Assembly (NCBI RefSeq): GCF_046105845.1
Contig: NZ_CP151004.1
From: Escherichia coli
GTDB lineage: Bacteria; Pseudomonadota; Gammaproteobacteria; Enterobacterales; Enterobacteriaceae
Strand: one strand, 5' to 3'
DNA: 64,000 nucleotides
The notes beneath the pieces were generated by a model. That model did not search any database and was not told where the DNA came from. It worked only from the letters and a program-made list of their open reading frames with translations. A program made the position numbers and the translations under genes. Below, one piece after another: positions 43,904-47,209 of the stretch (positions are counted from its first letter, which is position 1; each line of letters begins with the position of its first letter).

Positions 43904-44677
43904 ATGATAAAACGGACGTTATTAGCGGCGGTCATTTTTAGCGCATTGCCCGCTTATGCCGGGTTAACTTCCATTACCGCGGGCTACGATTTTACCGATT
44001 ATTCTGGCGATCATGGCAACCGTAATTTAGCGTATGCTGAACTGGTGGCGAAAGTTGAAAACGCAACGCTGCTTTTTAATCTTTCCCAGGGGCGTCGTGA
44101 TTATGAAACTGAACATTTCAATGCCACTCGCGGTCAGGGTGCGGTCTGGTATAAATGGAATAACTGGCTGACAACCCGAACGGGTATTGCCTTTGCGGAT
44201 AATACGCCGGTCTTTGCCCGCCAGGATTTTCGTCAGGATATTAACCTGGCACTGTTGCCAAAAACGCTTTTCACGACCGGTTATCGCTACACGAAATATT
44301 ACGATGATGTCGAAGTCGATGCCTGGCAAGGCGGCGTATCACTCTATACTGGCCCGGTGATCACCAGCTATCGCTATACCCATTATGACTCCAGCGATGC
44401 AGGTGGTAGTTACAGCAATATGATTTCCGTGCGTCTGAATGACCCGCGCGGCACTGGTTATACGCAACTATGGCTAAGCCGCGGAACAGGTGCTTACACC
44501 TATGACTGGACGCCAGAAACACGCTACGGCAGCATGAAGAGCGTCAGTTTGCAACGTATTCAACCGCTGACTGAGCAACTTAATCTCGGGCTGACGGCAG
44601 GTAAAGTGTGGTACGACACCCCAACCGATGATTATAACGGTCTGCAACTTGCAGCCCATCTGACCTGGAAATTCTGA
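43904..44677 (+). CDS. yaiO: Outer-membrane beta-barrel protein YaiO
   Basis: 257 aa with signal peptide MIKRTLLAAVIFSALPAYA and C-terminal ...HLTWKF beta-barrel signature. Confidence 0.9.
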   Translation: MIKRTLLAAVIFSALPAYAGLTSITAGYDFTDYSGDHGNRNLAYAELVAKVENATLLFNLSQGRRDYETEHFNATRGQGAVWYKWNNWLTTRTGIAFADNTPVFARQDFRQDINLALLPKTLFTTGYRYTKYYDDVEVDAWQGGVSLYTGPVITSYRYTHYDSSDAGGSYSNMISVRLNDPRGTGYTQLWLSRGTGAYTYDWTPETRYGSMKSVSLQRIQPLTEQLNLGLTAGKVWYDTPTDDYNGLQLAAHLTWKF

Positions 44678-44789
44678 TTCCTTCTGCCGCCCGCTATCCG
44701 GGGCGGCCTTCCCTGCCGATTAGCCCCACCCCCTTTCCTCTTTGTTTTCCGACCACATTCACCGGATAAATTTTATTCTCCAGTGTTAT

Positions 44790-44838
44790 ATACTATAGGG
44801 GGGTATGTATTGACATATAGAATACCCCCCTATAGTAT
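44790..44838 (+). promoter_or_regulatory. frmRAB promoter/operator: inverted repeat with G6/C6 tracts overlapping -35/-10
   Basis: atactataggggggtat (44790-44806) and atacccccctatagtat (44822-44838) form a 17-nt inverted repeat flanking ttgaca; lies 27 nt upstream of frmR ATG; consistent with an FrmR (CsoR/RcnR-family) operator. Confidence 0.6.
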
Positions 44839-44864
44839 ATTGCATGCAGATGATGAGGTGCGAA

Positions 44865-45140
44865 ATGCCCAGTACTCCGGAAGAGAAGAAAAAGGTCCTT
44901 ACTCGAGTTCGTCGTATTCGGGGGCAAATTGATGCTCTGGAACGGTCGCTGGAGGGTGATGCCGAATGCCGTGCCATACTCCAACAGATCGCTGCCGTTC
45001 GGGGCGCGGCTAACGGGCTGATGGCAGAAGTGCTTGAAAGCCATATCCGGGAAACGTTTGACCGAAATGACTGCTACAGCCGCGAAGTCAGCCAATCCGT
45101 TGACGACACTATTGAACTGGTTCGTGCCTATCTTAAATAG
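44865..45140 (+). CDS. frmR: Formaldehyde-responsive repressor FrmR
   Basis: ORF 44844..45140; known 91-aa FrmR starts [31 protein letters not shown]... at 44865. Confidence 0.92.
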
Positions 45141-45144
45141 CTGA

Positions 45145-46284
<1,140 letters not shown>

Positions 46285-46375: not shown

Positions 46376-47209
46376 ATGGAACTCATTGAAAAACATGCCA
46401 GCTTTGGCGGCTGGCAAAATGTGTATCGGCATTATTCCCCATCACTGAAATGTGAAATGAATGTCGGCGTCTATCTCCCACCAAAAGCCGCAAGTGAAAA
46501 ATTGCCGGTGTTGTACTGGCTTTCAGGGCTGACTTGCAACGAGCAGAATTTCATTACTAAATCGGGGATGCAACGTTACGCGGCTGAGCACAACATTATT
46601 GTTGTTGCGCCGGACACCAGTCCGCGAGGCAGTCATGTCGCAGATGCTGACCGTTACGATCTCGGGCAAGGTGCCGGGTTTTACCTGAACGCAACGCAAG
46701 CGCCGTGGAATGAACATTACAAAATGTATGACTATATCCGCAACGAGCTGCCGGATTTAGTGATGCAACATTTTCCGGCAACGGCCAGAAAGTCTATCTC
46801 AGGTCATTCTATGGGCGGGCTGGGCGCACTGGTGCTGGCGTTACGTAACCCAGATGAATATGTCAGCGTCTCGGCGTTTTCGCCCATTGTCTCCCCATCG
46901 CAAGTACCGTGGGGACAGCAAGCCTTTGCCGCATATCTTGGTGAAAAAAAAGATGCCTGGTTGGATTACGACCCGGTGAGTCTTATTTCACAAGGTCAAC
47001 GCGTTGCGGAAATCATGGTTGATCAGGGATTGAGTGATGATTTTTACGCAGAACAGCTGCGGACTCCAAATCTTGAAAAGATCTGCCAGGAGATGAATAT
47101 CAAGACGTTAATCCGTTATCACGAGGGTTATGATCACAGCTATTATTTTGTCTCCAGTTTTATTGGCGAGCATATTGCCTACCACGCCAATAAACTGAAT
47201 ATGCGTTAA
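46376..47209 (+). CDS. frmB: S-formylglutathione hydrolase FrmB
   Basis: 277 aa esterase D-family protein with GHSMGG nucleophile motif. Confidence 0.94.
   Translation: MELIEKHASFGGWQNVYRHYSPSLKCEMNVGVYLPPKAASEKLPVLYWLSGLTCNEQNFITKSGMQRYAAEHNIIVVAPDTSPRGSHVADADRYDLGQGAGFYLNATQAPWNEHYKMYDYIRNELPDLVMQHFPATARKSISGHSMGGLGALVLALRNPDEYVSVSAFSPIVSPSQVPWGQQAFAAYLGEKKDAWLDYDPVSLISQGQRVAEIMVDQGLSDDFYAEQLRTPNLEKICQEMNIKTLIRYHEGYDHSYYFVSSFIGEHIAYHANKLNMR

Follow-up and report, generated by a model that had tools for sequence, protein, structure and literature searches.

The inverted repeat described here lies in a 64-kb stretch of E. coli DNA (hereafter the window), between a gene whose product is identified by Pfam as YaiO and the three genes of the frmRAB operon. 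The first gene downstream of the repeat, frmR (44865..45140, + strand), encodes a 91-aa formaldehyde-responsive repressor of the CsoR/RcnR family (PF02583, E = 3e-23). It is annotated as FrmR in RefSeq, and its product is identical over the full length to the protein of PDB entry 5LBM ('Transcriptional repressor FrmR'). On the same strand follow frmA (45175..46284), the second gene of the operon, which encodes S-(hydroxymethyl)glutathione dehydrogenase (a zinc alcohol dehydrogenase according to Pfam), and frmB, also named fghA (46376..47209), the third gene, which encodes S-formylglutathione hydrolase (an esterase according to Pfam). When a 701-nt query around the repeat was compared with 5426 complete E. 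coli genomes, matches were found in 5416 of them, and the features under the match were yaiO, frmR and frmA. The gene order in a best-matching record is yaiP, a gene for an LbetaH-domain protein, yaiO, frmR, frmA and fghA (frmB), with yaiL and mhpT on the opposite strand.

The annotated frmR start codon at 44865 gives a protein that begins MPSTPEE. It is preceded at a distance of 4 nt by the Shine-Dalgarno-like sequence GAGGTG (44855..44860, + strand), which is invariant in Escherichia, and it places at position 2 the proline that is required for formaldehyde sensing by FrmR (PMC5146963). A longer open reading frame of 98 aa that begins at ATG 44844 (44844-45140) was rejected as the frmR coding sequence: it is an artefact of choosing the longest ORF, with an ATG located at or upstream of the predicted transcription start. 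On the yaiO side, a G+C-rich hairpin (GCCGCCC-GCTATCCG-GGGCGGC) is found at 44686-44707, 9 nt past the yaiO stop codon. This hairpin has no T tract after it and was not called by the terminator scan; it may serve as a terminator that lacks a T tract, or stabilise the end of the yaiO mRNA.

The original prediction, made from the DNA alone, drew attention to a pair of perfect reverse-complement arms 15 nt apart, with a ttgaca -35 hexamer between them. Both parts of this description are correct. The 17-mers ATACTATAGGGGGGTAT (44790-44806) and ATACCCCCCTATAGTAT (44822-44838) are perfect reverse complements, and a repeat finder shows that perfect pairing reaches 2 nt farther out on each side, such that the arms are slightly longer than first described (19 nt each, at 44788..44806 and 44822..44840, both given for the + strand). 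The 15 nt between them (44807..44821, + strand) read GTATTGACATATAGA and contain TTGACA at 44810-44815; the centre of the repeat is at 44814. In an exhaustive scan allowing loops of up to 40 nt, this is the longest perfect inverted repeat of the window, the runner-up having arms of 13 nt. The longest arms in 20 simulated 64-kb sequences (Markov-1 model) measured 9-13 nt, compared to the 19 nt observed, and an analytical estimate from base composition gives approximately 1e-5 repeats with perfect arms of at least 19 nt expected per window. A chance origin of the repeat is ruled out by these two results. The window contains two G6 runs and four C6 runs, and the repeat holds one of each.

The repeat overlaps the only sigma-70-like promoter detected upstream of frmR. 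TTGACA is followed after 17 nt, within the 16-18 nt spacing typical of this promoter class, by the -10-like hexamer TAGTAT (44833..44838, + strand), which is identified by consensus match only; the two hexamers agree with the consensus at 10 of 12 positions and are the sole match in 44600-45000 on both strands. An alternative -10 element, TATAGT, is present at 44831-44836 with a spacing of 15 nt. As predicted, the downstream arm overlaps the -10 region: both candidate elements fall inside it, and the arm takes in the final 11 nt of the spacer together with the entire -10 element. A divergent promoter on the mirror-image arm was also considered and was rejected, as the scan gave a promoter on the + strand only and yaiO, the gene upstream, reads in the same direction.

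Judging from the position of the -10 element, transcription would start at 44843..44845 (+ strand). This zone agrees with the report of Denby et al. 2016 (Sci Rep 6:38879, PMC5146963), who place the centre of the repeat at -29 from a frmRAB transcription start that is itself described as 'predicted'. No experimentally mapped frmRAB transcription start was found in the literature searched. Because the predicted start lies downstream of the repeat, the repeat would not be part of the frmR mRNA.

The position of the start bears on whether the repeat acts as a nucleic-acid structure, either as an RNA hairpin on transcripts reading through from yaiO (a terminator or stabiliser) or as a DNA cruciform. 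A 71-nt segment containing the repeat folds far better than shuffled controls, both as RNA (-35.4 kcal/mol, z = -7.2) and as DNA (-18 kcal/mol, z = -6.0), but scores of this kind are automatic for any perfect inverted repeat. There is no T tract past the stem, the scan returned 0 terminator-like sites, and no Rfam family came near its gathering score: the best was a eukaryotic miRNA hairpin at 26.4 bits, against a threshold of 84 bits. The repeat therefore qualifies neither as an intrinsic terminator nor as a curated structured RNA. Moreover, frmR promoters with a single box or with direct boxes (discussed below) cannot form a hairpin, and it is the box motif rather than the pairing of the arms that is conserved. 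We consider it very improbable that the repeat functions through its fold.

Each arm of the repeat is a small dyad in its own right, ATAC-N9-GTAT, that includes a G6 or C6 run; no third such site is present in the 64-kb window. Box 1, the distal FrmR box (ATAC-TATAGGGGG-GTAT, 44790-44806), is contained in the upstream arm and stops 3 nt short of the -35 hexamer, while box 2, the proximal FrmR box (ATAC-CCCCCTATA-GTAT, 44822-44838), is contained in the downstream arm and covers promoter spacer and -10 element. The two boxes are arranged head to head with their centres 32 bp apart. Their nine central bases are asymmetric (TATAG followed by GGGG in box 1, and the complement in box 2), and the long perfect palindrome arises because two asymmetric boxes are placed head to head. 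The unit recognized by FrmR is each 17-bp ATAC-N9-GTAT box with its own flanking dyad and not the long repeat, which is a lineage-specific by-product of the two head-to-head boxes.

Both boxes show the hallmarks of a type I site of the CsoR/RcnR family, for which we used the definition given in PMC5146963: a G/C tract (approximately 3-8 bp) with short, AT-rich inverted-repeat flanks. They overlap the promoter of the operon that encodes the cognate PF02583 repressor, and the motif is kept upstream of orthologous regulators.

The boxes could instead be targets of another regulator, the most obvious being the paralogous Ni/Co sensor RcnR, which is 40% identical to FrmR and whose sites have a G tract and the TACT-N7-AGTA frame in common with the FrmR boxes. 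The operator of E. coli rcnR-rcnA (Iwig and Chivers 2009) resembles that of frmR in that a single promoter contains two boxes of type I, each reported to bind one tetramer. However, neither FrmR box matches the RcnR consensus TACTGGGGGGNAGTA, even with up to 3 mismatches allowed, and the arrangement of the sites is different. In K-12, the rcnR-rcnA boxes are direct repeats (TACTG6-7NAGTA) located 20 bp apart start to start, with the G6-7 tract abutting TACT; the FrmR boxes lie in inverted orientation at a distance of 32 bp, and in these it is the C tract that abuts (A)TAC(T), with the TATA segment on the other side. Published data also point to FrmR, as its binding is specific and expression of the operon is constitutive in an frmR stop mutant (PMC5146963). 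An assignment of the boxes to RcnR or to another regulator is extremely improbable.

The prediction that the repeat has the architecture expected of the FrmR operator at the formaldehyde-detoxification promoter is borne out, both by the frmR gene downstream and by the work of Denby et al. 2016, who describe the same element at the same locus. In Fig. 6a of that paper, Pfrm of E. coli K-12 contains a 'large inverted repeat centred at -29' that is made up of two ATAC/GTAT-flanked type I FrmR sites. The operator reading is right but already published, and the checks proposed with it (FrmR binding with and without formaldehyde) have largely been carried out in print (PMC5146963). E. coli FrmR (EcFrmR) binds a PCR fragment of K-12 Pfrm with a Kd of ~220 nM in BLItz assays, compared to ~3600 nM for the control promoter PydhY. 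Formaldehyde abolishes this binding and dissociates pre-formed complexes, and transcription of frmRAB in vitro is inhibited by FrmR and relieved by formaldehyde (PMC5146963). Along with the stop mutant mentioned above, these experiments establish the binding of FrmR to Pfrm, its release by formaldehyde and the resulting control of transcription both in vitro and in vivo.

The literature also shows that transplanted boxes are sufficient for repression. A 2024 study (PMC11127321) cites ATACN9GTAT as the FrmR site and reports FrmR-dependent repression of the J23100 promoter after insertion of one box in front of the -35 hexamer and a second within the spacer. The same study reports that repression was lost in a truncated PfrmR in which both boxes were intact, so the boxes alone may not suffice in the native promoter.

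FrmR of Salmonella has been characterized by Osman et al. (2015, 2016). As in E. coli, the Salmonella frmR promoter (frmRAPro) contains a C tract with T/A-rich inverted-repeat flanks; mutation of one of these flanks abolishes binding, and it is in Salmonella that dependence on the AT-rich flanks has been shown. Formaldehyde directly weakens the Salmonella FrmR-DNA interaction. The two systems differ in that the 33-bp Salmonella frmRAPro probe has a single C6 site, to which two FrmR tetramers bind (K ~1e-7 M), whereas E. coli has two boxes 32 bp apart. Unlike E. coli, Salmonella is without frmB. Two tetramers on a single 33-bp site are not easily reconciled with one tetramer per box. For E. coli Pfrm, one tetramer per site has been modelled only (PMC5146963), and a 1:1 model was used to fit the BLItz data, which therefore do not fix the number of tetramers on the double site.

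Neither a stoichiometry for the E. coli double site nor a base-resolution footprint of EcFrmR on the two boxes was found in the literature searched, including Denby et al. 2016, although the sort-seq data of Rohlhill 2017 may map them. Literature searches (post-2018) for a structure of DNA-bound FrmR or of another CsoR-family complex gave no result, and a PDB sequence search with FrmR returned the protein-only entries 5LBM and 5LCY.

We next consider how widely the boxes are conserved. A set of 80 loci encoding FrmR relatives (52-100% identity) was collected from contigs representing one genome per species; a frmA homologue is located directly downstream of frmR in 76 of them. Boxes were counted as ATAC-N9-GTAT, with no more than 1 mismatch, within 150 nt upstream of frmR. 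At least one box is present in 75 of the 80 loci, which are drawn from the Gamma-, Beta- and Alphaproteobacteria, and three of the five loci without one (L067, L074 and L078) carry an N8 variant. Box density is 8.7 per kb upstream of frmR versus 0.16 per kb in the remainder of these loci, an enrichment of approximately 55-fold. The consensus of the 33 distinct proximal boxes is ATAC-T-CCCC-(T/C)AT-A-GTAT, which corresponds to a TACT-N7-AGTA frame with the C tract promoter-distal.

Most lineages have the promoter-proximal box only. A single box is found in Rhizobiales, Burkholderiales, Xanthomonadales, Pasteurellaceae and Tatumella. In the first four of these groups, the box is the same ATACT-CCCC-(T/C)AT-AGTAT motif in the orientation of box 2, just upstream of frmR-frmA; in many cases this box shares the final base of TTGACA (in Rhizobiales, it directly adjoins TTGAC), and there is neither a distal box nor a long inverted repeat. 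Among the 80 loci, two boxes are confined to Enterobacterales, Aeromonas and Deefgea, where they are spaced 32-35 bp start to start. The order is head to head in most two-box promoters, and there box 1 matches the reverse complement of box 2 at 13-17 of 17 positions; the Erwinia boxes are direct, and those of Deefgea are inverted in the opposite sense. Across lineages, this identity ranges from 10 to 17 of 17. Arm-to-arm covariation was considered as a sign of selection on the long palindrome and was set aside as weak, since both boxes follow one asymmetric consensus. On this distribution, the ancient and nearly universal part of the operator is the promoter-proximal box, whereas the distal box, and with it the conspicuous long palindrome, has been added in particular lineages (Enterobacterales, Aeromonas and Deefgea). 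The G6/C6 run is confined to Escherichia, and even in this genus box 2 of E. albertii reads ATACTCCCC.

Several loci in this collection have unusual arrangements. Three loci, from a Citrobacter freundii MAG, Klebsiella grimontii and Maribrevibacterium harenarium (L007, L010 and L012, respectively), have near-identical frmR genes (~91% identity to E. coli), no frmA within 1.5 kb downstream and a distal box with an N10 core. In these, frmR is followed by ~660 nt of apparently non-coding DNA and then by an ORF whose N-terminus resembles, by eye, that of an iron-type alcohol dehydrogenase. That unrelated genera have this arrangement in common suggests a mobile element. In six Xanthomonadales loci from Lysobacter and others (L035, L036, L037, L054, L057 and L079), the box ATACTCCCCCCCACTATG overlaps the frmR start codon as assigned by tblastn, which implies that the frmR mRNA is leaderless or that the start has been misplaced. 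Plasmid 1 of Edwardsiella anguillarum (L009) carries an frmR-frmA cassette with a perfect 17-nt two-box palindrome (ATACTATAGTGGAGTAT / ATACTCCACTATAGTAT), and cassettes of this type are near-identical in Enterobacter and Morganella. Plasmids also account for 31 of the E. coli matches obtained with the 701-nt query. The regulated frmR-frmA cassette appears to be horizontally mobile.

Within Escherichia, conservation follows the boxes and the promoter hexamer. In 10 Escherichia sequences including K-12, 37 of the 38 arm positions and all of TTGACA are invariant (box 1 and its arm without exception), while 5 of the 9 other spacer positions vary. The difference between arms and spacer is significant by Fisher's test (p = 5e-4), a value that is only indicative as the sequences are related. 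Invariant arms around a variable spacer indicate constraint on the boxes and promoter hexamers and not on the loop, as an operator predicts.

The promoter of this strain is itself a variant. Both 19-nt arms and TTGACA are identical to those of K-12 MG1655, and a single spacer base differs: position 44808 is T in the window versus C in K-12 and most E. coli. The 95-nt promoter region is at least 99% identical to that of the window in only 4 of 4891 matching genomes, with most at 96.8%. The Pfrm spacer allele of this strain is a rare one.

In the region preceding the first arm (window positions ~44740-44787), the approximately 17 nt next to the arm (ATTCTCCAGTGTTAT) are also conserved across Escherichia species, and this flank may be part of the promoter or operator. 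Farther upstream, homology breaks abruptly in M15, AR_0086, E. albertii and others, and the 701-nt query is covered over less than 80% of its length in ~1000 of the 5416 matching genomes. By these alignments, the yaiO side is a variable junction.

Based on these observations and the published experiments, we conclude with a probability of roughly 93% that the repeat is the operator of the frmRAB promoter Pfrm, composed of two 17-bp type I boxes, with FrmR occupancy blocking RNA polymerase and formaldehyde releasing the repressor. In the proposed mechanism, tetrameric FrmR would sit on the boxes when formaldehyde is absent, probably with one tetramer per box in E. coli. Box-bound FrmR would presumably occlude RNA polymerase, keeping frmR, frmA and frmB off and making frmR autoregulated. 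Formaldehyde would then cross-link Pro2 to Cys35 between FrmR subunits and remodel the DNA-binding face, and the remodelled protein would leave the DNA, allowing the promoter to fire.

A variation on this mechanism is that the head-to-head boxes nucleate a higher-order complex, in which one tetramer bridges the boxes using both of its faces or the DNA is wrapped with the help of upstream DNA; symmetry and spacing would then be functional. Bridging was raised explicitly by Denby et al. 2016 (PMC5146963), as the FrmR boxes lie much farther apart than RcnR sites. A complex of this type would explain why repression is lost in the truncated promoter that keeps both boxes (PMC11127321), a result suggesting that upstream DNA matters, and it is consistent both with the conserved ~17 nt upstream of the first arm, though homology breaks farther up, and with the recurrence of the head-to-head order in most two-box promoters of Enterobacterales. 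Against it, box spacing differs between the two-box lineages (32-35 bp), so that helical phasing is not fixed, the boxes of Erwinia and Deefgea depart from the head-to-head order, and one box is enough in most lineages. The shared orientation in Enterobacterales may simply have been inherited from a common ancestor. We regard a bridged or wrapped complex as unlikely, and favour separate occupancy of the two type I boxes by FrmR.

The present case shows that a real regulatory element can be recognized from raw sequence alone. As the operator had already been published, nothing conceptually new is added to its description, and the added value of this analysis is modest and comparative, consisting of the conservation of the boxes and their distribution among lineages. 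For E. coli itself, the repeat is the switch that controls formaldehyde detoxification, and it has found wide use in synthetic methylotrophy as a biosensor for formaldehyde.
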